From: a virus
Taxonomy: Duplodnaviria; Caudoviricetes
Reading direction: 5' to 3' (one strand)
Virus record (IMG/VR): IMGVR_UViG_3300028366_000011
Span: 1 to 25,122 of that record
Length of the DNA stretch: 25,122 bases
Shown: in pieces, positions 3,803 through 22,991 of the stretch
Layout of the letters: each line of letters starts with the position of its first letter
Position numbering within the stretch: position 1 is the stretch's first letter
Program-made: the position numbers and the translations under genes
Notes under the pieces: model-generated
The model's database searches: none
What the model was told of the DNA's origin: nothing
Seen by the model: only the letters and a program-made list of their open reading frames with translations

Positions 3803-3831
3803 GGCAGTCTCCTAGATGGAGTTTCAAGCGG

Positions 3832-3848
3832 CCACACATCATGCGCGG
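3832..3848 (-). promoter_or_regulatory. Leader hairpin CCGCGCA-TGA-TGTGTGG (conserved motif, copy 4)
   Basis: Core CGCATGATGTG at 3835-3845, about 32 nt upstream of the giant ORF start. 7-bp stem including G-U pairs. Confidence 0.7.
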
Positions 3849-3898
3849 TATGTCTCGCGCACAGTAGCAAATACTGGGGCGACAGGAAAGCGCACAAT

Positions 3899-3931
3899 AA
3901 GAAAAGACCCGGCGGATGGACTCGCCGGGCC
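3899..3931 (-). terminator. Rho-independent terminator
   Basis: GGCCCGGCG-AGTCCATC-CGCCGGGTC followed by TTTTCTT on the minus strand. Confidence 0.8.
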
Positions 3932-3989
3932 TTCCCTCTTGGAACTCGATCACGTTACGCGGCGGACGAGACCTGCAACAATGACCGAT
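3899..3989 (-). ncRNA. Candidate ~90-nt small RNA
   Basis: Lies between a sigma70-like promoter (3996-4024) and the terminator. Has a 13-bp stem (3988-3975 pairing with 3958-3946) and a small hairpin TTCC-AAGAG-GGAA (3932-3944). Confidence 0.45.
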
Positions 3990-3995
3990 GCCGAT

Positions 3996-4024
3996 CTTGT
4001 ACGTTGATGCGCGCGCGTGGTCAA
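3996..4024 (-). promoter_or_regulatory. Putative sigma70 promoter TTGACC-N17-TACAAG
   Basis: -35 TTGACC at 4024-4019, exact 17-nt spacer, -10 TACAAG at 4001-3996. Intergenic position. Confidence 0.55.
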
Positions 4025-4029
4025 TCGCG

Positions 4030-5871
4030 TTATTGGAGGCGCGGTGGCTCCTGCTGCGGCGCCCCGCCGCCCTGGCCGGTCGACGCCCCCGCCGACATGC
4101 CGAGACGACGGTAGACGTTCTGCCGCGCGATCTCTTCAATCTGGTCCTCGGTCATCTTGTCGGTGTTGAACTCCTGCGACGTGCGGATGCTGTCGGCCTC
4201 GCGCCGGATCTCCTGCGCCATCTCCATGCGGTCGATCGGTTCCACCGCGCTGCGCTGGTTCTTCATGCGCATTTCGCGTGCCTGCTGGCTCAAGCCCCAG
4301 AGGTATTCGAACGTCTGTTCGGGCGCGAGCGTGTAGACCGCCATCTCGACGATGTCCTGCTGGTTGTCGTACTCCTGAACAGAGACCTCGCCGGTCTCGT
4401 CGTTGCGCACAGCCAGCGTCGCGCCGGTGATGTTGCCCTGCCGGTCATGCTTGAACCTGGTCTGTTCCGGGTCGATCGACATGCCGTCGTCGATGGCGTT
4501 GTACGTGGCGGACAGGTGTTCGATGAATCGGTCCTCATCGCCGTTGGTGATGGCCCAGATCGCTTTCGACCAGCTTGCCATCTGGCCCTTGACCTTCTGG
4601 CTGTCGGCCCATTCCTGGAACGCGGTGGCTTTCTCCACGTCGCCTTGCTTGAGGAAATGGTCGATGATCTTGGGAACCGCCGTCTCGGCATAGTGCTGCA
4701 TGAAGGTCTGCGAAGCGCGCTCTTCGTCGGCGGGGTTCACGTCTCCGTTGCCCATGACGCCGCGCGACGCCTGCTGCGTGTCCTGCATGGCTGCGCTGGC
4801 CGACGTGACGGACGGGGCCCCGCCTTGGCCGGGCGGGTTCTGGGTCGCCTGCTGGTCAAGCTCTGCCGTGGACGCCTCGCGCACATCGAGGTTGCCCGCC
4901 TTCGGGGCGGCTCCGGGCGCACCGGGGCGCGCGGGCGCGGCGGGGCGCTGCTGATCCGGCGCGGGCTGCTCGGGGGTGCCGGGCCGGGCCGGGCCGGGCG
5001 TGCCGCCGGTGGGGCCGGGACCGATCGGACCATCACGTCGGGCCGTCATGCCGCTTGGTGCTTGCGGCGCGGGCGGCTGCTGCGCGGCCATTTGCGGGCG
5101 TTGGCCGCCGGGCGTCGTCGGCCGCGTCTGCGGCGGCGTTGGCGTTTGCTGGCCATCCATCTGCGCGAAAAGCTGCTGATCCTCGGGGCGCATGCCCGCC
5201 CAAAGCTGCTCGATACCGATGCCGACCTGCTGCGCGGCCTGTTGCGCGCGCGGGTTCTCGGCAAAGCTGCGCGGCATGGGCGCGTCGGGGCCGGTCGGGG
5301 CCGTGCCGGCGGATCCGCGCACCGATCGTCCGGGCTGCGGCATGGCGGCGGGACCGGGCGGCACGGCAGGCGCGGCGCCCTGTTCCGGCCCCGGCGCTTG
5401 CGGCGGCTGGCCGTTGGACGCGGCCATGGGCTGCTGCGGCCCCTCGCTGCTGACACTCGGCTGTTGGGCAATGCTGCGCGGGCGCATCTGCGGGCGCTGC
5501 GGGGCGGCCTCGGGCGGTTGTTCCGCGGCGGGCTGGCTCATGATGCTGCGCGACGAGGTGCGCGGCTGCGATTCCGTTTCCGGCTGTCCATCGGCGCCGT
5601 AGCTCTCGCGCGCGTCCGTGTAGATGCCGGCGATCGCCTCGCGGTCATCCTCGGCGCGCTGCCATTGGTCCATCTGCCGCTCGCGCTGCGTGCGGGTATA
5701 GTCGCGGTTCTCGCGGGTCCAGTCTTGGTTTTCACGCTGAACGTCGCGGCTTTCCTGCTCCCACTCCCACCGCTTGTCGTTGCGCTTGCGCTGCGTCTTG
5801 CGATCCTTGACCTTCTCGCCGTACTCGTAGCCTTGGAAAGCGCCTTCGATGAATGAACCCAGACCGGCCAT
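4030..5871 (-). CDS. Probable internal virion/DNA ejection protein, 613 aa
   Basis: Amphipathic Gly-rich N-terminus, charged coiled segment, long P/Q/A-rich disordered middle and folded C-terminal part. Sits between the tail genes and the giant protein. Confidence 0.7.
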   Translation of the reverse strand: MAGLGSFIEGAFQGYEYGEKVKDRKTQRKRNDKRWEWEQESRDVQRENQDWTRENRDYTRTQRERQMDQWQRAEDDREAIAGIYTDARESYGADGQPETESQPRTSSRSIMSQPAAEQPPEAAPQRPQMRPRSIAQQPSVSSEGPQQPMAASNGQPPQAPGPEQGAAPAVPPGPAAMPQPGRSVRGSAGTAPTGPDAPMPRSFAENPRAQQAAQQVGIGIEQLWAGMRPEDQQLFAQMDGQQTPTPPQTRPTTPGGQRPQMAAQQPPAPQAPSGMTARRDGPIGPGPTGGTPGPARPGTPEQPAPDQQRPAAPARPGAPGAAPKAGNLDVREASTAELDQQATQNPPGQGGAPSVTSASAAMQDTQQASRGVMGNGDVNPADEERASQTFMQHYAETAVPKIIDHFLKQGDVEKATAFQEWADSQKVKGQMASWSKAIWAITNGDEDRFIEHLSATYNAIDDGMSIDPEQTRFKHDRQGNITGATLAVRNDETGEVSVQEYDNQQDIVEMAVYTLAPEQTFEYLWGLSQQAREMRMKNQRSAVEPIDRMEMAQEIRREADSIRTSQEFNTDKMTEDQIEEIARQNVYRRLGMSAGASTGQGGGAPQQEPPRLQ

Positions 5872-5880
5872 GCTGCCCCC

Positions 5881-6609
5881 TTACCTGTAGAATTGGCTGA
5901 CGATGCTTTCGCCCTGCCCCATGATGCTGCGCTCGTTGGCCGGGGCCGCGCCGCCGGTGGATGGGCCGGTGTAGGTGTCGCGCCCCGCATCCGCGCGCCC
6001 GAACACATGGTTGCCGATGCGGTGCCAGTTGCCACCGCCGCCCTGCCCCCATTCGGGGTTGGCGGCCGCCGGGTTGTAGTAATGCGTCGCGCCGCCGGTC
6101 GGATCCTTGTAATCGCCAGACAAGATCGCGTCCGCGGCCTTGTAGGCGTCCTGCGACGGGTTGCGCTTCGACATATCAAGCCCGCCCTCGCCGCCGGCGT
6201 ATCCGGTCACGCTGTTCCAGGCGCTGAACTGGCCGGGCTTCATGATGACCTCGCGCACGTCGCCGCCATACCCGCCTTCCTTGGCGCGGTTGGCGATGAC
6301 CGATCCTGCGGCGAGCATGCCGTCATAGCCTTCGCCCGCGGCCTCTGCGTCGAGCGTCATAGCCAGAAGGTCGCGCTGGTTCTCGGGGGCGGCGCCGCCC
6401 CCGGCGATCGACCGCCCGCGCAAGCGCGTGCCGCCGCCTTCCGGCACGAACGGCGGCGTCCCGGCATAGCCTTCTTCTCCGGGCCGCGCATGATCGCCGC
6501 TCTTTTTCGCCATATCCTCGAGAATACCGCGCTCCTTGCGCCGCTCCTTGATGCCCTCGCCGCCCTGGTAGCCGCCGACAAGGCCACTGAGAAAAGCGCC
6601 TGTGCTCAT
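5881..6609 (-). CDS. Virion-associated cell wall hydrolase (SleB/Hydrolase_2-like), 242 aa
   Basis: Motifs LAMTLDAEAAGEG, VIANR, VIMKPGQFS, DPTGGATHYYNP and IGNHVF are typical of SleB-family lytic transglycosylases. Confidence 0.85.
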   Translation of the reverse strand: MSTGAFLSGLVGGYQGGEGIKERRKERGILEDMAKKSGDHARPGEEGYAGTPPFVPEGGGTRLRGRSIAGGGAAPENQRDLLAMTLDAEAAGEGYDGMLAAGSVIANRAKEGGYGGDVREVIMKPGQFSAWNSVTGYAGGEGGLDMSKRNPSQDAYKAADAILSGDYKDPTGGATHYYNPAAANPEWGQGGGGNWHRIGNHVFGRADAGRDTYTGPSTGGAAPANERSIMGQGESIVSQFYR

Positions 6610-7658
6610 TGTGCCGCTCCTGCAATGCTGCGTGGTGCCGGGCCGGTCTGCATGCCCTCGGTCATCTCACGGTCCATGACGCTGCGCTTCTTCGGGCCCT
6701 TGCCGCCTTCCAGCTTGTCGACCTTGCGGGACAGTTCCTGAACCGCGCCCAGGGTGACGCCCATCATGTCCTGCATCGGGATGGTCTTGCCATCACCCTT
6801 GCCTGTGGCCGCTTGGAAATCCTCGGCATAGGGGCCGATATGCCGGCCCTCGTCGGCGATGCCGTCCTTGTAGGACCATTCCTCGACCGGCATGCTATTG
6901 GCAACTTCGAGCACGCCGCGCGCCGGGCGCTTGTCTTCCTTGTAATCTTTCGAACTCATGGCGAGCGACATCCCAAGCCCGGCCACCGAGCCCAAGCCGC
7001 CCATCATGGAACTGCTCTGCTGCTGGTCCGCTTTCCACGTTTGAAGCTGCTGATTGTATTGCGTGTTCAGCATTTGCCCCTGCTGGCCATAACCCTGCAT
7101 GGCGCCGCTGAACCCCTGCGAGGTGGCGTTGTTGGATAGCCCCAGCGAGGTGGCCGGGTTCACGGCCATGCCGGATCCCATGTTGATCGCGTTGGCGACC
7201 TCGGCGTCGTTCTTGTCCTCGGCCCGGTTGCGCTGTTGCAGGCGCGTGGTGTTGCGCGCGCCGGTCGTGCCAAGGGCCTCAGTCAATTCAGACCGCCGCG
7301 TGGCCTCTGTCGATCGGCCAGCCGCCGGGTTGACCCCGGACGCGGCCAGCCGGCGCTCTTCCTGCCCTTGGGCAAGGCTGAACTGCCGGCGCGCGTCCGC
7401 GCCCGCGCGCTCGACCGCGGCGTCGACTTCGGAATAATCCGGCCCGGCCATCGCGTCGGTGATGTACTGGTCCTGCATCGGCTCAAACACGGTCTTGTAG
7501 CGTTCGCGGTCGTCAGCCGCCCACCGGTTCGAAACCGCGGCCTGCTCCTTCATGAAGCCGAGATAGTCCTCGCCGATCTGCGCCGATTTCATCGCGGCCT
7601 TGCCAATGTTCGGATCCGGTTCGGGCGCGCTGCCGCCGCCGCCGCCATAAATGCCCAT
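6606..7658 (-). CDS. Probable ejection protein with C-terminal peptidase S74 (intramolecular chaperone) domain, 350 aa
   Basis: Start reassigned to ATG 7658 (TAATG overlap with the upstream stop). N-terminus MGIYGGGGGSAPEPDP. C-terminal SSKDYKED...WSYK...HIGPYAEDF...LGAVQELSRKVDKLE fits the S74 pattern. Confidence 0.8.
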   Translation of the reverse strand: MGIYGGGGGSAPEPDPNIGKAAMKSAQIGEDYLGFMKEQAAVSNRWAADDRERYKTVFEPMQDQYITDAMAGPDYSEVDAAVERAGADARRQFSLAQGQEERRLAASGVNPAAGRSTEATRRSELTEALGTTGARNTTRLQQRNRAEDKNDAEVANAINMGSGMAVNPATSLGLSNNATSQGFSGAMQGYGQQGQMLNTQYNQQLQTWKADQQQSSSMMGGLGSVAGLGMSLAMSSKDYKEDKRPARGVLEVANSMPVEEWSYKDGIADEGRHIGPYAEDFQAATGKGDGKTIPMQDMMGVTLGAVQELSRKVDKLEGGKGPKKRSVMDREMTEGMQTGPAPRSIAGAAQ

Positions 7659-8119
7659 TATTCGGCCTCCCACTGTTCAAAGGTTTCGGGCGACGCCTGG
7701 TGGCTAAATTCTTGAATTTGCTGCGCGACTTCCTTGGCGTGATCATACCCGCCGCAGATGAACGCGACGGTATAGGCGACGTGTTCAATGGCCTCGCGCC
7801 CCACGAAGCCGAACATACGCGTCTTGCGATTACTGCTGTGGCGCCAATGCTCGCTCATGTCCCACATGAGAACGCCGTTCATCATGCTGGCACCCAAAGC
7901 CGCGCTGTGGCGCTGGAAAAACGGGTTGGTGGCGTGTTCGAGCCATGCTCTGATCAGAAGGTTGGACATATCACCGACCGGATCCATGGTGTCCTCGTCG
8001 GCAATGTCGTCGGCAAGCCGGACCATGTGCATGACGTTCACGAGAAACCGCGCCGCCTCGTCATCGCCGCGAGCCCATTCGAGCGCCAGATCGTTCAACT
8101 GATGAGATGGAAGCGGCAT
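7658..8119 (-). CDS. Hypothetical helical protein with DDxxD motif (isoprenoid synthase/prenyltransferase-like), 153 aa
   Basis: RLADDIADED at ~7991-8020. AAAGG upstream. Translationally coupled to the next gene. Function is inferred from the motif only. Confidence 0.6.
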   Translation of the reverse strand: MPLPSHQLNDLALEWARGDDEAARFLVNVMHMVRLADDIADEDTMDPVGDMSNLLIRAWLEHATNPFFQRHSAALGASMMNGVLMWDMSEHWRHSSNRKTRMFGFVGREAIEHVAYTVAFICGGYDHAKEVAQQIQEFSHQASPETFEQWEAE

Positions 8120-8157
8120 GATATGACGGGCCTTTCGTCTGATCTAAGACTGTCGGG

Positions 8158-8174
8158 CCGCACATCTTGCGCGG
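8158..8174 (-). promoter_or_regulatory. Leader hairpin CCGCGCA-AGA-TGTGCGG (conserved motif, copy 3)
   Basis: Core CGCAAGATGTG at 8161-8171, about 41 nt upstream of ATG 8119. 7-bp stem. Confidence 0.7.
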
Positions 8175-8222
8175 GGATGCCGCACGAATACCACATCTGC
8201 GCGCAGAATAGAAGATGAAGCG

Positions 8223-8849
8223 TTACAGGTCGCGTCTCGTGGAATTGACCATCTTGCAGGTATGGCAGCGGCCACACTCGCGAAAGCCGTAGCGGCCAGT
8301 GATTGACGACCTGGGATTGCGGCACGTCCAGCACATATCGACCAGGTCGGGCGCGAGGTATTGCATGGTTTGCAATTTCGTCGGCCAAGGAATCGTTTTC
8401 AGCTGCGGCGGTTTCTCGGGCCAGCATCCGGCCTGCATGGCTGACCTCAAGCAATGGGCCCGGTTCTTCATCTTCTGGTACGGGCTGTCGAGATCTTCAA
8501 GGCACTCGCCAAAGTACCATTCTGTCGGCATGACGCCCATTGTGTTCTTGAAATTGACCGCGGCGATTCCGGCTTCGAAAGAGACGGTCATCACGTCGAA
8601 CCCGAAAAAACCTGTCATGCCGGTTCGGTCGATGTTGGATTCGCTGTAGAAAAACGTGCGATAATTGGCTTTGCAATAGTCGATGATGGCTTGGCAGGCT
8701 TTGGTTTCGGCCTCGCCCCTGCGATCCGGGTTTGCCAAGTGAATGTGATGCACGCAGATGACGCCGTCAGTTTCCGTCAGGAACTTCTTGAGGACGTATG
8801 TGCTATCCAGACCCCCGGAAAACATGAGAAGACGGCACGCGAGCTGCAT
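8223..8849 (-). CDS. QueC-like PP-loop ATPase (7-cyano-7-deazaguanine synthase family), 208 aa
   Basis: N-terminal LLMFSGGLDST PP-loop and C-terminal WTC...CGRCHTC Zn-binding cluster. TGATG overlap with the upstream gene. Confidence 0.8.
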   Translation of the reverse strand: MQLACRLLMFSGGLDSTYVLKKFLTETDGVICVHHIHLANPDRRGEAETKACQAIIDYCKANYRTFFYSESNIDRTGMTGFFGFDVMTVSFEAGIAAVNFKNTMGVMPTEWYFGECLEDLDSPYQKMKNRAHCLRSAMQAGCWPEKPPQLKTIPWPTKLQTMQYLAPDLVDMCWTCRNPRSSITGRYGFRECGRCHTCKMVNSTRRDL

Positions 8850-9373
8850 CAGGATGAAACCGGCCAGTAGCTGTCATCGGTGTAATCTTGCGGTATCGGG
8901 TTGGCGTCCTTGAGATCCCACATTGCGCTGTAAAGCGCCTGCGCTGCCATGCGCGCACCCGAGACCAGTTCCAGCATCTGCGTCGGCGTCAGCATGTGCG
9001 TGACATTGTCCCGGTCGCGAAAGGGCAGGACAGCGGCCGTTATGCCGGCTTCCTGCAATTCCTTCGCGCTGTCCCGCAGGTTGGGGAATATGGCCATGTC
9101 CCGATCGCGGCCCTGCACCGGAATGTCGCCAATACCCGTTACGGCAATTCCCGTACCCATGCGCAAGCGTCGCTCAATCTCTGCATCCACATGGTCGGGC
9201 ATCACCGGCACTACGCGGTCGAAAAGCGCCCCACCGGACACTTCAAACGCTTCCAGAGGGGTGATCGGCGTGTCGTCGGGTACGTTGATGTAATCACCCG
9301 GCGGCGGCGCGTCCGGGTCGCCGTCGACTGTGAACAGAACATTCCCGTTGTCCGAGGCATAGTAAATCAGCAT
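8849..9373 (-). CDS. Tail fibre-associated protein (DUF4376-like / fibre assembly), 174 aa
   Basis: Directly follows the tail fibre. FRDRDNVTHMLTPTQMLEL and the C-terminus LKDANPIPQDYTDDSYWP resemble this family. Confidence 0.65.
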   Translation of the reverse strand: MLIYYASDNGNVLFTVDGDPDAPPPGDYINVPDDTPITPLEAFEVSGGALFDRVVPVMPDHVDAEIERRLRMGTGIAVTGIGDIPVQGRDRDMAIFPNLRDSAKELQEAGITAAVLPFRDRDNVTHMLTPTQMLELVSGARMAAQALYSAMWDLKDANPIPQDYTDDSYWPVSS

Positions 9374-9375
9374 GG

Positions 9376-12300
9376 TCAGGGCCCCATTTTGAAGAACAAA
9401 AACCTGATTGTTTTGGAAATTCCAGCCGGGATAATGACGTCAGGCGTCTTTGCGGAAACCAAAGAGATATAATCGCTGGTTGTGGCTATCACTTCGCCGC
9501 CAGACTCATCAAGTTCAATTTTCCCCATGTTCAAAGAGGTTCCATCCAATGTGTGAAACACCCAGAAGCCAGCGCCATAATCCGGAAACGGACCGTGGCT
9601 GCTGGCGGAGCCTTTCTGTGTTGCCAAAAGCGGGATGACATCAGCGGGGATGTCCTCGCTGTTGCTCTCTGCAACTTGGACCCGACCAGGCGAGCCACCC
9701 CCTCCCGATGCGGATCCGCTGGCACCAAGCCCGGCAGCGCCAATATCCGTAATTTCCAACGTGGGCGCAGACATGCCTGAAATATCGTAGCCAACAATGG
9801 AAACGAGTGGGCTTGATTGACCGCCCAAGCCGCCGCCGTCTTGCGGTTGACTTGCGCCGCCGCCCCCGCCGCCTGCGCCGTATCCCGTTGCATTACCGCC
9901 GGACGTTTCATCGACTGGACGCGTTGCGAGCCTAGTGTCACCCTCGCCGCCGGCATTTTGATCATACGTCTCGTAGGACAAATTGGCACCGGCCGCGCCG
10001 CCGGTGCCCCACGGGCTCGACTCTCCGCGCGTTGCGGGGGCACGATTCCGCACGGATTCAACCTCCGGCTGCCCGCCCACTGCGGTCCAGGTTTCAATCA
10101 CCGTCGCGCCATCTTTCAGCACGACAACAGTGTCACCGCCGGCTGTGCCCTGCCCGTCGAGGTCGCCGGCGTTGCCGCCCGCGCCACCGCCGACCAGAAA
10201 GATATCGACCCGGCTGTAACCGGTCAGGTCTACAGTTTGCGGATCGGTGTAGAGCAGGGGATTGAGCGGCACGGACAGGGTGCGGTAATGGTTGGCGTTG
10301 AACAGCCGCACTCCGTTGCGCCGGGTCGCTTCTATGGATTGGCGAAGCCCTGTGATATCATCGGTCTTGGAAAACGCCAAACCGAACCCGATGGAGCCAT
10401 CCAATTCGTTTGTGCGGCCCATGTAGATGCCATCGCTGTTAACATCATAAGCACTTGTTTTGTCGATGGAAAATCCGGCACTACCAGAGTCGAGAAACAG
10501 AAGGTCGTCAATTTTCATCTGGCTGGCGCGAATGAAACCGCCGGTGATCCAATCGGCGTTTAAGCGGCCTTCAATGTTCACCTGCGTCACGTCGATGCGC
10601 AGCGCAGAAGTCGGCCCGTTTATCGGGTCATCAGCGGCGACAAGTTCCAGCACGCCCTCGGCGGCCCCGGCCAACGCGCGCAGCGTGTATGTCGCTCCGG
10701 CGAAACTCTCGATAGTTGCAACTGCGTTGGCGGTCTGCGTCACCGAGGCGTCGGTTGTGGCGAGGTTGGCGGAAACCGTCGAGATATCGGATGCGAGCGC
10801 GCTGTCCGCGTTTGACCGGGCGATCTGCTCGCCGGCGATCTCCGCCTCTGCGCTTCCGACGCGCGTCGTCAGTGACGTGATGTCCGTGGCCAAAGCACTG
10901 TCTGCTGATGCTCGCGCTGATTGCTCGGACGTGATGTCCGCTTCGGCCCCATCTACTCGCGTGGTGAGCGCAGTTATATCGGACGCCAAAGCATCGTCCG
11001 CATTGGAACTCACAATGCTTTCGCTGATGATGCTTGATTCGGCGGTGTCGACTCGCGTGGTGAGCGCGCTGAGGTCTATTGCGATCGCACTATCCGCATC
11101 GGTTCGGGCGGTCTGCTCACTGGTGATGTCGCTTTCCGCATCACCCACCCGAGTCGTCAGCGTGCTGATATCAACCGCCAGAGCGTTATCTGCATCAGAC
11201 CGGGCGATCTGCTCGCCGGCGATCTCCGCCTCTGCGCTTCCGACGCGCGTCGTCAGTGTGTTCAGGCTGGTGGTGAGCGCGCTGTCAGCGTTCGCACGCG
11301 TCGCCTGCTCGCTTGTCAGGTTTGCGGAGACCGTATCAATGTTCGATTGCAAGGTCGCCTGAGCGGCGCTGATTGCCTGCGTCGTGTCGGCCGAGGTAAA
11401 GTAATCTTCCGTCAGCGTCGCGTTCAGCGTGCCGATCTGGCTCTCAAGGCTGGACTGGAGCGCGGTGGTCGCGGTGGAGATCGCCTGATCGGTTTCCGCG
11501 ATCGTCAGATAGTTTTGCTCCAGAGTTGCAGCGACCTCCCGGCTATCGGTCACCTCCAGCAGGGCTAGTTCATCCAGTTCGACAATAGAATCAGGCCCCT
11601 GCTGATTGCCAAGAGATATTTGGGGATAGGCTTTGAACGCGCCCGCTGGAAACGGATTGTCTGTCCCGATGCCGCTCATTATTGAAACCGACACCCACGC
11701 GCCATTGTTCTGGACGGGGGTGTTGTTAACTCCGAGCCCGAAGCCGGCGGGAAAGTAGTCGGAAATGTAGTCGCCGTTCACGTCCTCAAAGCGGATGACA
11801 AAGAAGATCTCGCTTGGGACAGTTCCCACCACGCGAAAACGGGCCTTAACGCGATATGCGCGGGCTGTGTCGATGACGGTTTTCCGGCTGTCGACCGGCG
11901 CCAGGAAGTTGGTGCTGTTGAGGACGCCCACCTGGCGGAACGCCTGCCCGCCAATGAACTCCGGGCCGGTCACAATGCTGTAGCTGCCCTGGTCGATTGC
12001 CTTGCCCCGCCAGCCAGTAATCCCCTGCGAGAAATCGAAGTTGGGAAACGTCTCGGCGACCTCGGAGATATCGGTCTGCAGCGAGGCTTCAAGGCTGGTC
12101 GTTGCGGCGCTGATTGCGGTGTTTGTCTCGGTCTTCGTGAAAAAGTCCGCGTCTAGCCGGGCGCTCAAGGTCTGAACTGTCTCGGACCCATCACCGGCTG
12201 CGATAATGTTGTTGATCTCCGTCTGCAGAGAACTTTCGAGCGTTGTGACCGCGCTGCTGATTGCGCTGTCGGACTGAACGATCGTGTAATAGTTGTTCGT

Positions 12301-12807: not shown

Positions 12808-12810
12808 GCG

Positions 12811-14400: not shown

Positions 14401-14411
14401 GGTTCACTCCC

Positions 14412-15074
14412 TCAGAAGAACGCCGCGCGCGAACGCGGCCGGGCGCGGTGCTGCCCGCGCACGCGAGCGCCGTTGGCATTGTCGACGCCCTGGTCGAAGC
14501 GCCGGCCATGCAGCATGGCAAGATCCGGGTTGGTGAACGGCTGCTGCGGCATGACGAGAAGGCGCGCAATGGCGCCGGCGGCGATGGTTTCCGAATAGCG
14601 CGAGTGCAGGAACGCCGGCACGCTGTCATAGGCGTTCTGCAGAAACCCGTCCGCGCCGATCTGCATGTCGTCACCGTGGCGCGGCTTGAGGATCAGCGAA
14701 ACCTTCAATGTCCCGGCCTCGAAGGGCACGATCGACACTTGGTTGAACATCTCCTGCGTGATCATGGCCGGCGTGGTGCCGGCGCTGGTGTCGATGTCCT
14801 CGAACGGCACATCGTCAAACTGCACGGGCGTCAGGCGCATATCGTTGAACTCGGCGCGCTCGATCTCATGGATCTCGGACTCATCCGGCGCGACAATGGC
14901 CTGACCCTGTTCGGTCAGGTCGATCTCGGCCCGGTGGCGCCAGCATCGCGTGCGCTCGCAGAACTCGATCGCTGATTGCCGCAACGCTTGCAGCATCTGT
15001 TGGGAGGCGGCACCCGGAGCGTGCGGGTTCACCAGATGCAGGAAGGTGGTCAGGTTGGTCATGGGGGTTGCCAT
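14412..15074 (-). CDS. Probable head-tail adaptor / tail tubular protein, 220 aa
   Basis: AIEFCERTRCWR and IAAGAIARLLVMPQQPFTNPDLA. GGAGG RBS. Position supports the call. Confidence 0.6.
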   Translation of the reverse strand: MATPMTNLTTFLHLVNPHAPGAASQQMLQALRQSAIEFCERTRCWRHRAEIDLTEQGQAIVAPDESEIHEIERAEFNDMRLTPVQFDDVPFEDIDTSAGTTPAMITQEMFNQVSIVPFEAGTLKVSLILKPRHGDDMQIGADGFLQNAYDSVPAFLHSRYSETIAAGAIARLLVMPQQPFTNPDLAMLHGRRFDQGVDNANGARVRGQHRARPRSRAAFF

Positions 15075-15095
15075 GGCGGGGCCTCCTGTCTGGTG

Positions 15096-15788
15096 TCAGG
15101 TCGTGTCGGGTGTCGCCACGGCCTCGATCTGGCGCCGCGCGCCGAGTTTGGTCATGAAGGACTGGTAATATGCCATTGCGCGCTGGCTGGAGCCCGCAAG
15201 CTGCATGTCCTTGGCGAAGGCTTGGTAGAGGATGAAGTCGATAAGCACGCTCTTGTAGACCGGGTTCAGGTCGATCTCGTCGGTGTAGCTGGCAAGGTCG
15301 GTCGGGTCGCCCGGGATGGTGATCAGCGTCGGCGTGACCGCAACCATGGCCTCCATGCGCCCGGTGCCGTCATTGCCCGGGAACACGTAGAAGTCGGTCG
15401 GATTCATCGGGTCGGTGATGACGTGCTGCACCAGCGACGTGCGCGGGTAGGTGGCGGCGGCGTGCCAGCCGGGGATTTGGTTGTCCAAGGCGTCGCGCTC
15501 GATCGGTGTGATGGCCGGGCCGGCGGCGCGCGGCGCCTCTGCCGCGCTGGTGATGTTGCAAACGGCGCGCAGGAACTGCGCCTGATCGGCCTCGAGCTTC
15601 TGCAAAGTGCCGGGCTGCAGGTTGAGGATGACCGTCTCCGCGCAGGCGGATGGCTTGACCAGGCAGATTTCCAAGAGCGCGTCATTGAGCGCGGTGGCCA
15701 GTTCGAGAATCGGCCACCGCACGGCGTCGGGGTCTTGCAGAAAGGTCTGCGCGCGCTCGAGCACGTCCTTTGCGATCAGGGCCGGCAT
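15096..15788 (-). CDS. Probable adaptor/neck protein (DUF6682-like), 230 aa
   Basis: LQDPDAVRWPILEL...LNDA, FYVFP and LIDFILYQAFAKD. Located downstream of the capsid genes. Confidence 0.65.
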   Translation of the reverse strand: MPALIAKDVLERAQTFLQDPDAVRWPILELATALNDALLEICLVKPSACAETVILNLQPGTLQKLEADQAQFLRAVCNITSAAEAPRAAGPAITPIERDALDNQIPGWHAAATYPRTSLVQHVITDPMNPTDFYVFPGNDGTGRMEAMVAVTPTLITIPGDPTDLASYTDEIDLNPVYKSVLIDFILYQAFAKDMQLAGSSQRAMAYYQSFMTKLGARRQIEAVATPDTT

Positions 15789-15799
15789 GGCGCCGTCCC

Positions 15800-16267
15800 T
15801 CAGTTGGCCCGCGCGGCGCGGGCCTCACGGATCTCGCGGATGATGCGGTCGCTCTTCATCTTGTGGTGCGGCTTCTGCATGAACTCGTCGCGGTATGCCT
15901 GTGCAAGCGAGCCCTCGTCGTAATCGTCGAGCCCGTCATCCTCGGGCGCTGTGTCCTGAACGTCGTCGCTTTCATCGTCCACGGATTCGATCCCATCGCC
16001 TTCGGGCGCGGTGTCGTCGGGCTGCGGTTCATCAACCGGCGTCGCCAGAAACGTGGTTTCGGCATCAGCCGCGACGGCGCGCATGGGGAATGAGCCATCA
16101 GCCGCGGCAAACCCCTCGGGGATGGACAGAAGGCGCTTCGCGTGCGCGTCGTTCTCGACGTCGCAGATATGCGGGCCGCCGGCCTCGCGCTCTTCGAAGA
16201 GGTATTCGGCGCCGTCAAGGCTGACGCGGGTACCGCCGACGCGCTCGATTTTCGAGATGATCAGCAT
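15800..16267 (-). CDS. Hypothetical acidic protein, 155 aa
   Basis: AGGAG RBS. Fills the gap in the operon. TGA immediately precedes the next RBS. Confidence 0.75.
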   Translation of the reverse strand: MLIISKIERVGGTRVSLDGAEYLFEEREAGGPHICDVENDAHAKRLLSIPEGFAAADGSFPMRAVAADAETTFLATPVDEPQPDDTAPEGDGIESVDDESDDVQDTAPEDDGLDDYDEGSLAQAYRDEFMQKPHHKMKSDRIIREIREARAARAN

Positions 16268-16290
16268 CTTGCTGGACTCCTGGAATGGGG

Positions 16291-16315
16291 AAAGGCCGCC
16301 CCGCGAGGGACGGCC
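16291..16315 (-). terminator. Weak intrinsic terminator after capsid gene pair
   Basis: GGCCGTCCC-TCGC-GGGGCGGCC followed by only TTT. Confidence 0.55.
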
Positions 16316-16330
16316 AGATCGCGTCCGAGA

Positions 16331-16771
16331 TCAGTGGACGTAATGAAGGACGACGGTCAGTTTCTTGCCGGAACCGACGGTCACATTGCCGCTCAGGGTC
16401 ACGCCCAGCCCGCGGTGGTCGTTGGTGCGCCCGACGGCGAGGCAGTCCAGTACGGTGGCAGGGGCCTCGTTGTCGTTGACGGACACGCCATCGAAGATCA
16501 GATCGGTGGTCAGCGCGCGGCCGGAATCGGTGGACCCCGCTTCGCCGTCGAGCACGCCAATATCTGCGGTGATGGCCCCGAGACCTTCGCCGATCAGCGT
16601 GGCGCCGACGATCTGGGCCCCGCCCGGCACGAAGCCGATTTCGAGCACGTCATCCGCGCTGGTGAAGTCGACAGGGAAGTCGTAGGTCAGAATGGCGGCG
16701 CAGACGAGGCCCGAGGAATAGCCCACGGGTTGATTGGCGCGACCATATGCGAAGTCGTTCTGTTTCAGCAT
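16331..16771 (-). CDS. Probable capsid decoration/cement protein, 146 aa
   Basis: Small beta-rich protein directly after the major capsid gene. AAAGGA RBS. Confidence 0.6.
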   Translation of the reverse strand: MLKQNDFAYGRANQPVGYSSGLVCAAILTYDFPVDFTSADDVLEIGFVPGGAQIVGATLIGEGLGAITADIGVLDGEAGSTDSGRALTTDLIFDGVSVNDNEAPATVLDCLAVGRTNDHRGLGVTLSGNVTVGSGKKLTVVLHYVH

Positions 16772-16810
16772 GGGTCTATCCTTTGTTTCAGGCTGACGTC
16801 AGGGGCGGCA

Positions 16811-16830
16811 CGGGCGCCCGGAGGCGCCCG
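16811..16830 (-). promoter_or_regulatory. GC-rich stem-loop after major capsid stop (no U tract)
   Basis: CGGGCGCC-TCCG-GGCGCCCG, a perfect 8-bp stem. Possible mRNA stabiliser. Confidence 0.5.
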
Positions 16831-16839
16831 CGTCGGTCT

Positions 16840-17934
16840 TTAGTTCTCGGGCTTGGCGTAGGTGTCGATCGCCATCACCCCGAAGTCGCGCCCGTTGAAC
16901 CGGGTCTTCTTCAGGCCGACAATCGTACCGGCGGCGATGCTCGGCGTGTTGTCGTAATCGTCGACCTCTTCCTTCCACATGTACCGCTGGCCTGCGGTCG
17001 TGCCGTAGGCGCAGACGGCCGCTTGGCGACCCATGAAAAGCCCACGTGCGGCGGGAAGGTCGCTGCCGGTCCCGTAGTCGTCGAAGCGGATCACGCGCTC
17101 GTGGCTGTGCAGGATCACGTTGTTGATCATCCCGAGACCACCCTTGAAGATCGGGTTGTTGCGACCCTCGGCCGCAGCGGCGGCCTTCTGGATCTCGAGC
17201 CAGCCCGACCCTTCCTCGGTGCGCATGTCCTGCTCTTGGTTGGGAGACATGACCGTGACGTAGCGATCCTCGCCCTCGACACTGACCGGCATCATGTTGG
17301 CGGTATCGGGGTCGGTGGCGCGCATCATGCGGGCCTTGGTGACGGCGCGCTCGATCAGCTTCCGGCTCATCTTGTCCGAATTGGTGATCGTCGCTTTCGA
17401 CACGGCCGAGCCGCCGTAAATCATGTGCTGCGCATCGGGTGTCTGCAGGGCGTTGCCTGCGTGGCCGGCATAGTCGGTGTCCTCGATGAACTCCTGGTTG
17501 ATGCCGCGGACGCCGGACAGATAGATGAACATCAGCTCGTCCATGTATTTCGACCAGTAATCGCCGAGACGGTTGCGGCCCGTGGTGCGCATGTCGTGCG
17601 CGGTGCGCTTGCGCGTCATCCGGCCACCGGCGGAGACCGAGTGCCGCAGCTGGTCGATGATGACCTCGTCGGTGTAGAACTTGAGGCTCTCTTCCTTGCC
17701 TTTCACGCGGTTGTCACCGCTGGTCGGCTTGCCGCGCAGCTGCACGGACAGGTCGAAGCTGATGCGCTCGCCCTGCTCGGTTTCGAGATCCGTCTTCTGT
17801 TCGATGACGTTGTTTTCGCCCTTGCCAATGAACTTCTTGGAAAAGTAGCTCTTTTTGACGGAGTCGACGGCGAGATTCGAGGACCATTTCTTCTGGGCCT
17901 TGACGTCGCCAAAGGGGATGATGGTTTGGGGCAT
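16840..17934 (-). CDS. Major capsid protein, N4-gp56 family-like, 364 aa
   Basis: GERISFDLSVQLRG, GKEESLKFYTDEVIIDQLRH, NPIFKGGLGMINNVILHSH and GLKKTRFN..DFGV. GAGGA RBS. Confidence 0.9.
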   Translation of the reverse strand: MPQTIIPFGDVKAQKKWSSNLAVDSVKKSYFSKKFIGKGENNVIEQKTDLETEQGERISFDLSVQLRGKPTSGDNRVKGKEESLKFYTDEVIIDQLRHSVSAGGRMTRKRTAHDMRTTGRNRLGDYWSKYMDELMFIYLSGVRGINQEFIEDTDYAGHAGNALQTPDAQHMIYGGSAVSKATITNSDKMSRKLIERAVTKARMMRATDPDTANMMPVSVEGEDRYVTVMSPNQEQDMRTEEGSGWLEIQKAAAAAEGRNNPIFKGGLGMINNVILHSHERVIRFDDYGTGSDLPAARGLFMGRQAAVCAYGTTAGQRYMWKEEVDDYDNTPSIAAGTIVGLKKTRFNGRDFGVMAIDTYAKPEN

Positions 17935-17965
17935 AACGATTCCTCATGCGGGTTTGAGACCTGCA

Positions 17966-17984
17966 TAAGCACATCATGCGCCTA
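17966..17984 (-). promoter_or_regulatory. Leader hairpin TAGGCGCA-TGA-TGTGCTTA (conserved motif, copy 2)
   Basis: Core at 17970-17980, about 35 nt upstream of the capsid ATG. 8-bp stem. Flanked by the variants GCAAGACG and GCATGAGG, the latter overlapping the RBS. Confidence 0.75.
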
Positions 17985-18016
17985 GCGTGCGTCTTGCATA
18001 CCATATGTTGTGTCCG

Positions 18017-18041
18017 AAAAAAAGGGGGCTTTGCGCCCCCT
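18017..18041 (-). terminator. Rho-independent terminator
   Basis: AGGGGGC-GCAAA-GCCCCCT followed by a T run (7 T in total). Overlaps the stop of the CsrA-like gene. Confidence 0.85.
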
Positions 18042-18246
18042 AGTCTGCCGGCCCGATTATCACCGCGCGGGGTGGGTCATCGCCGCACGCGTCGATCTCT
18101 TCTGGATCACCGGGTTCATTGCGGATCGACACATGATCCGGGGCCCCGAAGGCGATGCGGACACGCCCGGCGCCGGCGTCCTTGATTTCCAAGGTTATGT
18201 CGCCGATGCGCACCACGTCACTCTTCTTCAACTTCAAAACCAGCAT
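18040..18246 (-). CDS. csrA: CsrA/RsmA-like RNA-binding protein (divergent), 68 aa
   Basis: MLVL...VVRIGDITLEI...VRIAFGAPDHVSIRNE aligns with the CsrA pattern MLIL...LMIGD.V.V.V...VRIGVNAPKEVSVHREE. AAGGA RBS. Confidence 0.75.
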   Translation of the reverse strand: MLVLKLKKSDVVRIGDITLEIKDAGAGRVRIAFGAPDHVSIRNEPGDPEEIDACGDDPPRAVIIGPAD

Positions 18247-18278
18247 GCGGGCGTGTCCTTATGGCAGGGGCTTGAGGG

Positions 18279-19271
18279 TCAGAGGTTCGCCGAAGAGAAC
18301 TCGTCCCGCTCAGCGTCCGACAACTTGGCGATCTCGGCCTCGATATCGTCGGGATGCGCGTTTCGGTCGTTCATCATGCGCTGCAGATATGCGAACTTGC
18401 TGTCCCCCTCGTCGCTGACCTTGGACGCCGGCACGCGGGCGAGGGTCTGCGGCGGTGTATGAAGCTCCTTGCCGTCCTCTTCCTTCTTCGCGGCCTTCTT
18501 CTGCTGCGGCGCGGGGTCTTTCTTCGCCGCCTTCTTGCTGGGCGGCACGTTGGACAGACCAAGGTCTTCGGCGGTAGCTTCAAGCCGGCGATGCGCCAGG
18601 GAAAGCTGTTGCTCGAAACTGAGCTTGGAGTAGGCCGGGTTGCTGGTGACGTCTTTCACCTCGGCGTCGAGGGCCGACATCACCGCCTGGTCGGCCTTGA
18701 GGTCGGGGAACGCCTTGAAGTAGCTCGCGACGGCATTGTCCCATTGCGTTTCTTCGGCGGCGACGCGCTGGCGGTAGGTCGCGCGTTCCTCGATGATGGA
18801 CTCGGCCTGCGTCTGGATCTCGCCTTCCTGCTCCGCAAACTCCTGCTCGTCGATCTCGCCATCGTTGAACTTCTGGAACAGGTCGGTGCGCTTGTCGCGC
18901 AGGTCTTTCATCTGCGCGTCGTGCTGCGGCGTCTGCACCTGCTTGGGATCGCGCGGCTGCGGCGCAGCGGCGTCAGGCTCGGCGGCCTTTTCCGGCTCAG
19001 GATCATCCTCGGCGGCGGCGTCCGCGCCTTCAGCGTCCTCGTCGGAACCATCCTCGTCGCTTTCGTCACCGGACGCGGCCTGCGCCTCGACGTCTTCGGC
19101 AGAGTCATCCTTGTGCGCATGCTCGCGCGCCCAGCCATTGTCGACCCATTGCTGGGTGTCTTCGCCGGTCAGCGATGCGCTGCCGTCGATTTCCTCGCCT
19201 TCGTCAGCCTCAAGCGCCGCGCGCTCTTCGTCGGTGAGAAGTTCGAGATCGTCGTCTTTGTCGTTTGCCAT
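18279..19271 (-). CDS. Probable capsid scaffolding protein, 330 aa
   Basis: Very acidic N-terminus, coiled-coil middle and helical C-terminus. Lies between portal and capsid. AAAGGAG RBS. Confidence 0.7.
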   Translation of the reverse strand: MANDKDDDLELLTDEERAALEADEGEEIDGSASLTGEDTQQWVDNGWAREHAHKDDSAEDVEAQAASGDESDEDGSDEDAEGADAAAEDDPEPEKAAEPDAAAPQPRDPKQVQTPQHDAQMKDLRDKRTDLFQKFNDGEIDEQEFAEQEGEIQTQAESIIEERATYRQRVAAEETQWDNAVASYFKAFPDLKADQAVMSALDAEVKDVTSNPAYSKLSFEQQLSLAHRRLEATAEDLGLSNVPPSKKAAKKDPAPQQKKAAKKEEDGKELHTPPQTLARVPASKVSDEGDSKFAYLQRMMNDRNAHPDDIEAEIAKLSDAERDEFSSANL

Positions 19272-19334
19272 GGTGTTGGCTCCTTTCGTTGGTCAGAGGT
19301 CGTCTAGGCCGCGAGAAAACACGTCAACGGAAGT

Positions 19335-19694
19335 TCACTCGGCGGGATAAGCCAGGCGCCGCACCTGAACGGCCAGCCCATCCAGCCCAAGGATCTCGGG
19401 CAGGGCTTCCAGCAGGTCCGTCGCGTCGGTGAAAGCGTGCCGACGGTCGGGATAGCACCGGGGGTCTTTCGCCCCTTCCTCGACGATGTACCCGCCGTTT
19501 GCCGCAGCGATGTTGTGCGTGCCATGCACGATCATAGACCCGTCGTGCCGGCGCGCGATCGTCAGAAGCTCGACGGGTTCGGATGCCATGGTGCCCTCCA
19601 TGACATCCGAGGGGGAGAACAGTTGCCCCTCCGGCGCATTGAAGTGCACCGGATCGCCGGTCAGGCTCACGATCTTGTCGTCGTGGTCGCTCAT
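19335..19694 (-). CDS. Hypothetical protein, 119 aa
   Basis: Start reassigned to ATG 19694 (ATGA overlap with the upstream stop, GGAAGG upstream). Begins MSDHDDKIVSL. Confidence 0.65.
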   Translation of the reverse strand: MSDHDDKIVSLTGDPVHFNAPEGQLFSPSDVMEGTMASEPVELLTIARRHDGSMIVHGTHNIAAANGGYIVEEGAKDPRCYPDRRHAFTDATDLLEALPEILGLDGLAVQVRRLAYPAE

Positions 19695-20173
19695 TTCGCG
19701 CCACCTTCCGCCGAATGGCGCTTGGCGCTCATGCCGTGCTTGGCCGCGATCTGCCGCTTCATCGGGCTGGCCCAATCGGGCAGCATGAGAAGAACGGCGA
19801 TTTGGTCGCCCTGCTTCTCCGGGTCGCCGATCTCCCTGCACGCGCTGCCGGGGTATTTCCCCTCGGGCAGAAGATCCCATCGCCCGACGCGCACGCTGAC
19901 GGAGCCCTTGATCCCGCCCTTGATCACGTTGTCGCCTTCTGCGCAGAGGCGGATCTGTGCGCGGCCCTCGTCCTGCCCGCGACCGATGAGAAGCTCCATG
20001 CGGTCCGTCTCGGGGTTGATGGCGCGTCCGAACAGGCGGTTCTGCGTTTCTGCGTTGAACGTGAGGCGCACGACTGCCAGCCGCGTCTTGCTGACTTCAC
20101 TGAGAGACATGGAGATCCCCGTGGCGGCGGCTTTGCTCGCGGTGGCGATCTTCGGGGCTGGCGTAAATCCCAT
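19691..20173 (-). CDS. Hypothetical protein, 160 aa
   Basis: AAAGGA RBS. Co-oriented with the operon and coupled to the next gene. Confidence 0.75.
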   Translation of the reverse strand: MGFTPAPKIATASKAAATGISMSLSEVSKTRLAVVRLTFNAETQNRLFGRAINPETDRMELLIGRGQDEGRAQIRLCAEGDNVIKGGIKGSVSVRVGRWDLLPEGKYPGSACREIGDPEKQGDQIAVLLMLPDWASPMKRQIAAKHGMSAKRHSAEGGAK

Positions 20174-20185
20174 GGTCGTATCCTT

Positions 20186-20198
20186 TCACATCATGCGA
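20186..20198 (-). promoter_or_regulatory. Leader hairpin TCGCA-TGA-TGTGA (conserved motif, copy 1)
   Basis: Core at 20187-20197, directly abutting the AAAGGA RBS of the gene starting at 20173. Confidence 0.7.
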
Positions 20199-20221
20199 CA
20201 AGTTGGGTTGGTGGTCCGGGG

Positions 20222-22561: not shown

Positions 22562-22991
22562 GGTCCACGGCCTCCGCTTCGGTCGTTTTGCCTGTGTCCG
22601 TGTCGGTGATCAGCACGTCGGCGACGACTTCCCGCTGATCTGCGGGGAACATCGGCATGCGCAGCAGGTCGCCGAGGCAATCGCGCACGACGGACGTGAC
22701 CTTGATCACGTTGCGCATCTCCATGGGGTTCATCCCGAGACCGGCGGCGAACTGAAAGCTCATGGCGGCGGTCTCGGCGGCGTCGCCTGTGACCTCGTCC
22801 CATGCGAAGGCGATATCGAGCGGCACGATGCAGGGCATGGTGCGCTCATGCGTGGGCATGATCTTCGTCGGTACGAGAACCATGCACGGGCGCTGGTTGG
22901 ACAGCAGCCAGGTGAAGATCACGGTGATATCGCCGCGCACCAGCGTCTTGTGGCGCAGGTCGAGGTCGAGAATGGGCTCTGAATCGGTCAT
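22554..22991 (-). CDS. Hypothetical protein between terminase and portal, 145 aa
   Basis: Overlaps both neighbours (4 and 8 nt), consistent with translational coupling. Confidence 0.8.
   Translation of the reverse strand: MTDSEPILDLDLRHKTLVRGDITVIFTWLLSNQRPCMVLVPTKIMPTHERTMPCIVPLDIAFAWDEVTGDAAETAAMSFQFAAGLGMNPMEMRNVIKVTSVVRDCLGDLLRMPMFPADQREVVADVLITDTDTGKTTEAEAVDHV

Follow-up and report, generated by a model that had tools for sequence, protein, structure and literature searches.

Does a short repeat that stands before several virion genes belong with the small regulator-like gene encoded among them? The stretch of DNA that raises this question, hereafter the window, comprises 25,122 nucleotides (nt) of a virus of the Caudoviricetes (IMG/VR record IMGVR_UViG_3300028366_000011, positions 1 to 25,122) and carries the 11-mer CGCAWGATGTG ahead of four genes, together with a gene for a CsrA-like protein. 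An earlier sequence-only reading had proposed that these form an orthogonal CsrA regulon. We posit instead that the 11-mer is the core of a predicted two-fold leader RNA, and consider it likely that the phage CsrA-like protein activates the translation of late genes through a small hairpin in that leader.

All four copies reported earlier are present, on the minus strand at 3835–3845, 8161–8171, 17970–17980 and 20187–20197 (sites 4, 3, 2 and 1, respectively), compared with a mean of 0.02 and a maximum of one copy in 100 shuffles. Each lies between genes, as had been described, and the motif ends 13 nt before the start codon of a 160-residue gene following the portal gene (post-portal gene; site 1), 35 nt before the major capsid gene (site 2), 41 nt before a 153-residue gene (site 3) and 32 nt before the gene for a DarB-like giant protein (site 4). 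The flanking bases differ from copy to copy and are nevertheless complementary (T/A, TAGG/CTTA, CCG/CGG and CCG/TGG). Allowing two mismatches did not enlarge the set, since 19 matches were found against 19.25 expected and the window holds no further family of near-copies. Three of the RNA loops read AUGAU and one AAGAU; the short stem and C-G closing pair of a canonical CsrA site are present, and the canonical A(N)GGAX loop is absent. A fifth site was found in the near-identical contig L550, 9 kb past the window, after the giant gene and approximately 390 nt before lysis genes. This site precedes a 24-codon open reading frame (ORF; L550 9823–9943), and the matching site of a Roseovarius prophage, which also keeps site 4, precedes a 521-residue fibre-like gene. 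No Rfam 15 family matched the window at the gathering score, and eight loci gave two sub-threshold, unrelated matches.

Related phages were collected via the capsid gene. The first set comprised 205 capsid loci, 195 of which were retained with a leader (ten had too little) and reduced to 121 representatives below 90% capsid identity, while a held-out set of 335 later loci, 11 of them dropped for the same reason, yielded 96 new representatives, or 95 after exclusion of one that was too distant. A leader element of the form GCGC-A-N-GA(N)-GUGC precedes the capsid gene in 202 of these 216 dereplicated relatives, and the 11-mers of the window are local copies of this family-wide element. The hairpin was recognised in 120 of the 121 first-set leaders (95 by a strict pattern and 25 read by eye), and a fixed rule recovered it in 82 of the 95 held-out leaders, compared with a mean of 1.2 in shuffles, most of the 13 misses showing variant hairpins by eye. 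Stem positions covary (0.277 vs 0.145, with none of 500 shuffles as high and all slid registers lower), which supports the previous suggestion that the repeats are RNA hairpins. A model of the family reached top scores of 17.7–25.6 bits in seven phages bearing the csrA-like gene. The element was also found before endolysin, giant-protein, nozzle and S74-virion genes in PEp14, Skulduggery, Atu_ph08, POI1126, PBC5 and prophages, and often before ejection genes; in Bcep22 and Gervaise it is clear at the capsid gene only. Five capsid leaders (L049, L125, L490, L524, L528) carry a tandem pair of hairpins, in L049 with the loop changed to UGCAC. In PBC5 (L072) the start codon annotated for the integrase falls within the loop of an 18.9-bit match at 956–977, where protein binding would repress the integrase, and in PEp14 (L066) a 20.3-bit hairpin (48695–48717, minus strand) stands 21 nt before a leftward early-region gene and is a possible second repressive site.

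The position of the element relative to promoters bears on whether the motif acts in transcription, either as a DNA operator downstream of late promoters, given its imperfect palindrome GCGC-N5-GTGC, or as a boxB-like antitermination RNA site. The sequence-only reading had held that a motif upstream of mapped transcription starts would be a promoter element. Predicted promoter-like boxes precede the motif: a sigma-70-like pattern ends 10–24 nt upstream of the element in 44 of 118 leaders (mean of 4.2 in shuffles), and a TG[GC]TA element lies 15–23 nt before the stem in 21 relatives. A strict sigma-70 scan of the window lists none of the candidate promoters of Table 1, and the terminator scan omits a hairpin at 3902–3929 that is visible by eye. 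The sequence A(C/G)AT(A/G)TGGTA, shared by leaders before the hairpins in the Rhodobacterales-type clade (window 17995–18008 and 8185–8198; L550–L554) and in several cases without a TTG box, is a candidate extended −10 element or site of a separate transcription activator. A transcriptional role would suit the fairly fixed spacing of the element, mostly 12–17 nt, after the −10-like box, as well as the lack of any match to the Q antiterminator family (PF06530) in four carrier genomes (Bcep22, PEp14, H66 and the Roseovarius prophage). However, loop length varies even inside one genome (4 nt in 77, 5 nt in 115 and 6 nt in 10 of the 202 loops), G-U dominates one stem position (176/202) and U-G replaces C-G at the closing pair in 12 of 202, wobble pairs that suit the sense RNA strand only. 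Furthermore, neither an operator nor a boxB-like site has need of the covariation with the ribosome site described below. We therefore regard a purely transcriptional role as quite improbable, while antitermination may be an added role besides translation.

A feature overlooked in the sequence-only reading points to the function of the element: the loop and 3′ arm of the hairpin are complementary to the stretch from the Shine-Dalgarno sequence to the AUG, and both sides change together. Duplexes formed within the element's own leader average −14.7 kcal/mol, compared with −9.9 kcal/mol for other leaders (minimum of 10,000 permutations, −11.2), an effect that is absent from upstream and coding control segments and is also seen with non-overlapping segments only (−14.3 vs −9.7 kcal/mol; 107 of 120 first-set leaders) and in the held-out set (−13.6 vs −9.8 kcal/mol; 63 of 82 non-overlapping). 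The predicted cost of opening the ribosome site in the first set has a median of 13.2 kcal/mol in the free leader and 6.5 kcal/mol with the hairpin forced, while shuffled leaders give 7.8 and 7.2. Forcing the hairpin gains more than 2 kcal/mol in 110 of 120 leaders (8 shuffled) and in 70 of 82 held-out leaders (13 shuffled), and opens the ribosome site in 180 of 202 leaders across both sets. The default leader fold is predicted to be OFF, and because the free leader is predicted to be closed and the hairpin halves the opening cost, whatever holds the hairpin would turn translation on. The earlier suggestion that the protein tunes morphogenesis gene expression is in this way given a direction, activation, by a competing fold that buries the ribosome site, with the exception of the post-portal site, which differs in geometry.

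Within the window the small hairpin is the minimum-energy fold at none of the four sites when the whole leader is folded. At sites 2 and 3 a longer helix covering the start is predicted to be 7.5–7.6 kcal/mol more stable than the hairpin (with 12 nt of upstream sequence). The OFF fold of site 2 (−24.9 kcal/mol, z −2.87) has an opening cost of 13.2 kcal/mol free and 6.2 kcal/mol with the hairpin forced; that of site 3 (−24.9 kcal/mol, z −3.23) falls from 12.0 to 5.2 kcal/mol with 12 nt upstream, and its helix is predicted to persist in the strain variant L002 (z −0.58). Site 4 appears to be a weak switch (gain of 0.5–3.2 kcal/mol), as its two folds are close in energy, folding a slightly different segment makes the hairpin the lowest, and a local hairpin at 3809–3821 also covers the Shine-Dalgarno sequence. 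At site 1 the free leader is not predicted to sequester the ribosome site and forcing the hairpin brings no gain. Here the 3′ arm of the hairpin enters the Shine-Dalgarno sequence AAAGGA (20186–20181), 13 nt from the AUG, and in the Roseovarius orthologue the hairpin raises the opening cost from 6.1 to 8.6 kcal/mol; the predicted geometry of site 1 is likely repressive.

This last site, and the presence of a second GCAUGA at the Shine-Dalgarno sequence of the capsid leader, raise the alternative that the protein binds the hairpin but represses or dampens late genes with the help of a second half-site near the Shine-Dalgarno sequence, repression being described as the usual CsrA mode in the relevant passages of PMC7492729. 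The second GCAUGA is, however, the partner strand of the OFF helix, and the capsid leaders, in which the loop ends 24–75 nt before the AUG, are already predicted to be closed when free and to be opened by the hairpin in the large majority of relatives. General repression of late genes thus seems to us no more probable than a transcriptional role.

The second question is whether the CsrA-like protein is the ligand. The ORF identified earlier matches Pfam CsrA (PF02599) at 32.1 bits (cut-off 27) and misses the cut-off of the NCBIfam csrA equivalog (TIGR00202; 20.3 vs 70.1 bits). A profile of 46 phage homologues matches RsmE (2JPP) at 1.8e-13 and CsrA at 2.7e-12. The predicted structural model (predicted local distance difference test score 91.5) shows a five-strand CsrA core, and its top PDB matches are all CsrA, RsmE or RsmA, on which it superposes with a template modelling score of 0.80 and a root-mean-square deviation of 0.9–1.0 Å over 44 residues, the Foldseek E value being only 4e-3. 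Asn43 of the window protein aligns to Arg44 of RsmE. Judged by profile and model, the protein is a divergent member of the CsrA fold and not an ordinary CsrA. Direct tblastn with the 68-residue protein in named phages returned nothing relevant. CsrA-like ORFs in L014, L227 and L488 appear internally duplicated or extended.

Co-occurrence of gene and site, put forward earlier as a check, holds for most but not all relatives. Of the 86 held-out representatives whose upstream DNA sufficed, 67 carry both by the fixed rule, eight only the gene, seven only the hairpin and four neither. Most of the gene-only representatives show variant hairpins on inspection. Of the hairpin-only representatives, L227 and L505 turn out to encode divergent CsrA-like ORFs, and the leader of L390 is that of Atu_ph08, a phage in which an inversion moves the csrA-like gene, while the other four stay hairpin-only. 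L507, scored as having neither, has a divergent gene, and the remaining three (L526, L536 and L529) have lost both gene and hairpin, with opening costs of 5.1, 6.6 and 8.9, and keep the scaffold gene. The csrA-like gene is present elsewhere in the genome in PBC5, L126 and L122. D80, CF418P1 and VT2-Sakai gave no gene match and background-level top model scores (none, 16.4 and 16.7 bits), which the top score of Gervaise, at 17.7 bits, barely exceeds. Relatives were gathered through the capsid, and outside capsid-related phages the gene was seen only in H66, whose capsid is distant and which holds the family csrA gene and three sites together, away from the capsid gene. H66 (L075, L205, L207) encodes two CsrA-family genes: the first, at 33124, is unannotated, lies among virion genes and has three AGGA-loop sites close by, and the second, at 16915, is on the opposite strand. 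A different element upstream of the capsid gene, GGTTC followed by ATAGCC, is shared by L526, L533 and L536 and is possibly a replacement control; in L533 the csrA-like gene persists, while the hairpin is degenerate and the ribosome site open.

Further evidence comes from the association of loop sequence with the residue at position 44. GGA is present in 96 of the 202 family loops, nine of which are textbook ANGGAN hexaloops. Arg occupies position 44 in 58 of 86 phages with GGA loops and in 9 of 89 without (27 of the 202 hairpin leaders have no alignable protein residue and fall outside these counts). The first set gave 32/51 vs 4/51, the best of 46 columns, and the held-out set 24/35 vs 4/38; all nine phages with GGA hexaloops have Arg. 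A close pair illustrates the pattern, as L219 (AGGAU, Arg) has a capsid 89% identical to that of L009 (AUGAU, Asn). In the RsmN structure this Arg contacts N7 of the first G (PMC3791407). On account of this association and the co-occurrence of gene and site, the neighbouring CsrA-fold protein is the best candidate for the ligand of the hairpin.

Several points weigh against this interpretation. Reading 25 hairpins by eye and anchoring the alignment on the hairpin biases stem counts and covariation toward a hairpin. Clear switches are predicted at only two of the four window sites, the gain at site 3 vanishes with 20 nt of upstream sequence (9.3 to 9.2 kcal/mol), and some strain variants break one OFF pair in the capsid leader. 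The second loop base also changes in step with the base it pairs with in the OFF fold (U opposite the A of the AUG in 54 leaders and G opposite an upstream C in 53) and may therefore be set by folding and not by the protein. The losses in L526, L536 and L529 represent two lineages only, nested in the clade. Apparent occurrence of the motif in phages lacking the gene, which the sequence-only reading regarded as telling against it, was seen in the records of L054 (a fragment) and L123, which have the hairpin and no gene match, in a profile search that missed the divergent genes of L505 and L507 and whose absence calls are thus weak. After correction for the tree, the link between Arg and GGA is borderline (median p of 0.25 in the first set; in the full set 0.03 or 0.125, depending on direction, and 0.18–0.29 for Arg-or-Lys), column 6 scores nearly as high, and PEp14 (AUGAC, Arg) and H66 (AGGA, Asn) are exceptions. 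The full-length model of the window protein shows no C-terminal helix. In RsmN, according to the part of the structure paper concerned, loss of the Arg cuts binding more than 1000-fold (PMC3791407), and the corresponding part of the RsmE paper states that the core A(N)GGAX bases are read via backbone hydrogen bonds and are not substitutable in the fold (PMC4005645).

An alternative is that the two-state leader is real and another factor works it, for example another phage protein such as the scaffold, a host RNA-binding protein, or co-transcriptional folding kinetics by which only nascent RNA is translated. The folding and covariation results hold whatever the ligand, and the OFF partner of loop base 2, the borderline tree-corrected link, the misfit of non-GGA loops with the CsrA fold argued in the RsmE paper and the two records with a hairpin and no detected gene are all compatible with such a factor. 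Against it stand the frequency of GGA loops, textbook hexaloops included, the identity of the associated column as a known RNA-contact Arg, and the pairing of gene and sites elsewhere in the genome of H66. No csrA other than the prophage gene was detected in the five alphaproteobacterial hosts searched, and the scaffold is kept where gene and hairpin were both lost. We consider another factor unlikely, if somewhat less so than repression or a transcriptional role, and prefer activation by the CsrA-like protein.

The proposed independence of GGA-type sites is not supported by the wider comparison. In addition to the GGA loops of the family, the closest prophage (Roseovarius) has the same Asn and AUGAU, AAGAU and AGGAU sites together, and both loop types occur side by side in L069, L112 and L114. 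A search of five alphaproteobacterial host genomes gave three csrA matches, each of them the prophage gene, and no match in two genomes, which leaves hardly any host CsrA from which to be orthogonal. The data are better accommodated by relaxed A-N-GA recognition than by a switched code, and insulation from host CsrA would at most be one-way. AGGA loops are absent from PEp14, Parlo, ZX1, Itty13 and Skulduggery, whose hosts belong to CsrA-bearing groups, but the rows of these five, or those of their closest copies, fall in one 14-row clade. An origin of non-GGA loops in escape from host CsrA was weighed and stays unproven, as H66, a phage of P. aeruginosa, has AGGA loops and AUGA loops come mostly from phages of alphaproteobacteria.

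These results suggest a possible course of events. The csrA-like protein would be made from a terminase-portal-scaffold-csrA transcript. Without ligand, a late-gene leader would settle into the long helix burying the ribosome site (OFF). The small hairpin would form first during transcription, and capture of its A-N-GA loop by the protein would leave the ribosome site free (ON). Binding and timing of this kind would confine translation of capsid, ejection, giant-protein and lysis genes to the period when portal and scaffold are already in production, and would keep these genes shut in the lysogen. Loss of Arg44, replaced by Asn in the window protein, may relax recognition of the first G such that AUGAU and AAGAU loops are allowed, and protein bound at the post-portal site would instead keep the ribosome out.

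More tentatively, at somewhat below even confidence, we hypothesise that a large temperate podophage clade runs its late programme at translation, with promoters that need no Q-type activator and leaders that are shut by default, and with a domesticated CsrA that opens them and shuts at least one earlier gene. Protein and RNA would co-evolve, Arg44 setting the need for GGA, which would give natural variants for the non-GGA loops that the solved structures bar. Lambdoid Q is similar in that a single small phage protein activates both the morphogenesis and the lysis genes. The target of Q is RNA polymerase at one promoter, whereas the csrA-like switch would act on translation at several leaders. 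VT2-Sakai has antiterminator Q and lacks the csrA-like system, and its contrast with the four carriers without a Q match fits alternative late control without proving it; PF06323 matched no genome or control and is uninformative.

The closest known parallel in mechanism is the activation of ymdA by E. coli CsrA, which opens a Shine-Dalgarno hairpin (PMC7492729, passages on ymdA). Common to the two, on the present prediction, is a leader structure that hides the Shine-Dalgarno sequence and is opened when a CsrA-fold protein binds, although ymdA is one host gene with two GGA sites under a host global regulator, whereas the phage system would use a phage-encoded paralogue for a set of late genes and one conserved two-state hairpin, often with a non-GGA loop. 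The RsmE-hcnA and RsmE/RsmN-RsmZ complexes (2JPP; PMC4005645 and PMC3791407, structural sections) share the fold over residues 1–44 and the C-G-closed A(N)GGAX loop, the GGA of which recurs in the family. They differ in that the window protein has Asn for Arg44 and no predicted C-terminal helix, family loops are mostly 4–5 nt with U or A for the first G at all four window sites, and hcnA is repressed. Mu Com likewise is a small phage protein that binds a hairpin loop beside a structure holding the start codon and activates translation, of mom, but Com is a zinc-finger protein with a single target gene (PMC6483171, in the part on Com), while the window phage would employ a CsrA fold for several structural and lysis genes. 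The genes annotated as 'CsrA-like regulator' in Bcep22, JC1, CSP3, PEp14, Gervaise, Itty13, Skulduggery, Parlo and ZX1 are the same gene in the same place before the capsid gene. In print, phage CsrA genes are described as a moron or as a possible regulator of host physiology or anti-CRISPR (PMC9144972, PMC10269572, PMC8450108, PMC7366521), and the passages of these four papers on the gene name no target site and no late-gene role; one CsrA peptide was reported from virions of JC1, in the portion of that work concerned. Searches of Rfam and of openly accessible papers gave no description of the site or switch. The family-wide phage translational switch is probably real and undescribed.

The window itself is a fragment, the morphogenesis region of a Bcep22/PEp14/Gervaise-like podophage, with a capsid 64–69% identical to those of the three named phages and the order typical of the group: terminase, portal, scaffold, csrA-like, capsid, adaptor, tail and ejection genes and the DarB-like giant. 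Its nearest named relative is the Roseovarius prophage (80%), and an alphaproteobacterial host is therefore likely. Atlas matches of the post-portal gene are hypothetical phage proteins, with an orthologue in L009/L553, and its relatives are near-identical viral ones and L009 only. The 153-residue gene is followed in its cluster by an S74 virion protein, a cell-wall hydrolase and a virion protein; its identification with the Bcep22 acetyltransferase was rejected, the sequences not being similar. The giant gene continues in contig L550.

Table 1. Positions in the window of the leader elements, predicted transcription signals and genes discussed in the text
Feature	Coordinates	Strand	Match or basis
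Site 1 hairpin, AUGAU loop, post-portal leader	20183..20202	-	Family model 11.3 bits (weak), rank 12 among 50 listed
Site 2 hairpin (predicted ON fold), AUGAU loop, capsid leader	17966..17984	-	Family model best match, 21.8 bits (site in training set)
Site 2 partner strand, Shine-Dalgarno and AUG of capsid gene	17931..17949	-	Pairs loop and 3′ arm in predicted OFF fold
Site 3 hairpin, AAGAU loop	8158..8174	-	Family model 20.6 bits, rank 2 of 50 listed
Site 3 partner strand, through AUG of 153-residue gene	8117..8132	-	Predicted OFF fold
Site 4 hairpin, AUGAU loop, giant-gene leader	3832..3848	-	Family model 19.1 bits, rank 3 among 50 listed
Candidate extended −10 element ACATATGG-TATGCA, capsid leader, predicted	17995..18008	-	Similar TG[GC]TA element in relatives
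Candidate extended −10 element AGATGTGG-TATTCG, site 3, predicted	8185..8198	-	Shares A(C/G)AT(A/G)TGGTA
Candidate −35/−10 pair (TTTCCT, 17 nt, TACTGT) before site 4	3861..3889	-	After terminator-like hairpin 3902-3929, read by eye
Terminator-like (intrinsic) hairpin and T run directly after csrA-like gene	18017..18041	-	Stem 18041-18023
CsrA-fold protein, 68 residues, between scaffold-like and major capsid genes	18040..18246	-	Pfam CsrA
Major capsid protein	16840..17934	-	PF13252, phrog_334
Acidic scaffold-like protein, directly upstream of csrA-like gene	18279..19271	-	phrog_8246 (unknown function); scaffold role suggested by position and composition
Post-portal gene, 160 residues, function unknown	19691..20173	-	No Pfam or PHROG match
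Portal protein	20222..22561	-	PF16510, phrog_156
153-residue unknown gene, opens ejection-type cluster	7658..8119	-	phrog_21390
DarB-like giant virion protein, N-terminal part, GTG start, runs off window	2..3802	-	phrog_10089

Other features of the region were also observed. Residues 1–261 of the terminase large subunit (22988–25120, minus strand), a gene cut by the window end, contain an intein-like insert with a homing-endonuclease-type motif, which ends in His-Asn before Thr and matches an intein-containing model at 4.7e-13. Next to the tail fibre, a stretch of lower guanine-cytosine content (57–59%; 8223–9373, minus strand) holds QueC-like and DUF4376 genes, and the cell-wall hydrolase (PF07486; 5881–6609, minus strand) is free-standing within the ejection-type cluster. 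In Vibrio phage D80 (L076) a gene of the Acb2/Tad1 family (3859–4155) lies between the portal gene and the gene preceding the capsid gene.

The CsrA-like gene of Bcep22-type phages, long annotated as a moron of no apparent purpose, now has a specific candidate job. If the proposal is true, this gene would be a master switch for capsid, ejection and lysis genes, a translation-level alternative to late control of the Q type or activator type, and would explain how the structural and lysis proteins of prophages remain silent behind ordinary-looking promoters. The approximately 175 natural pairs of protein and RNA offer material for studying how specificity changes in the CsrA fold, and some phage pairs may serve as small translational ON switches that are invisible to host CsrA.

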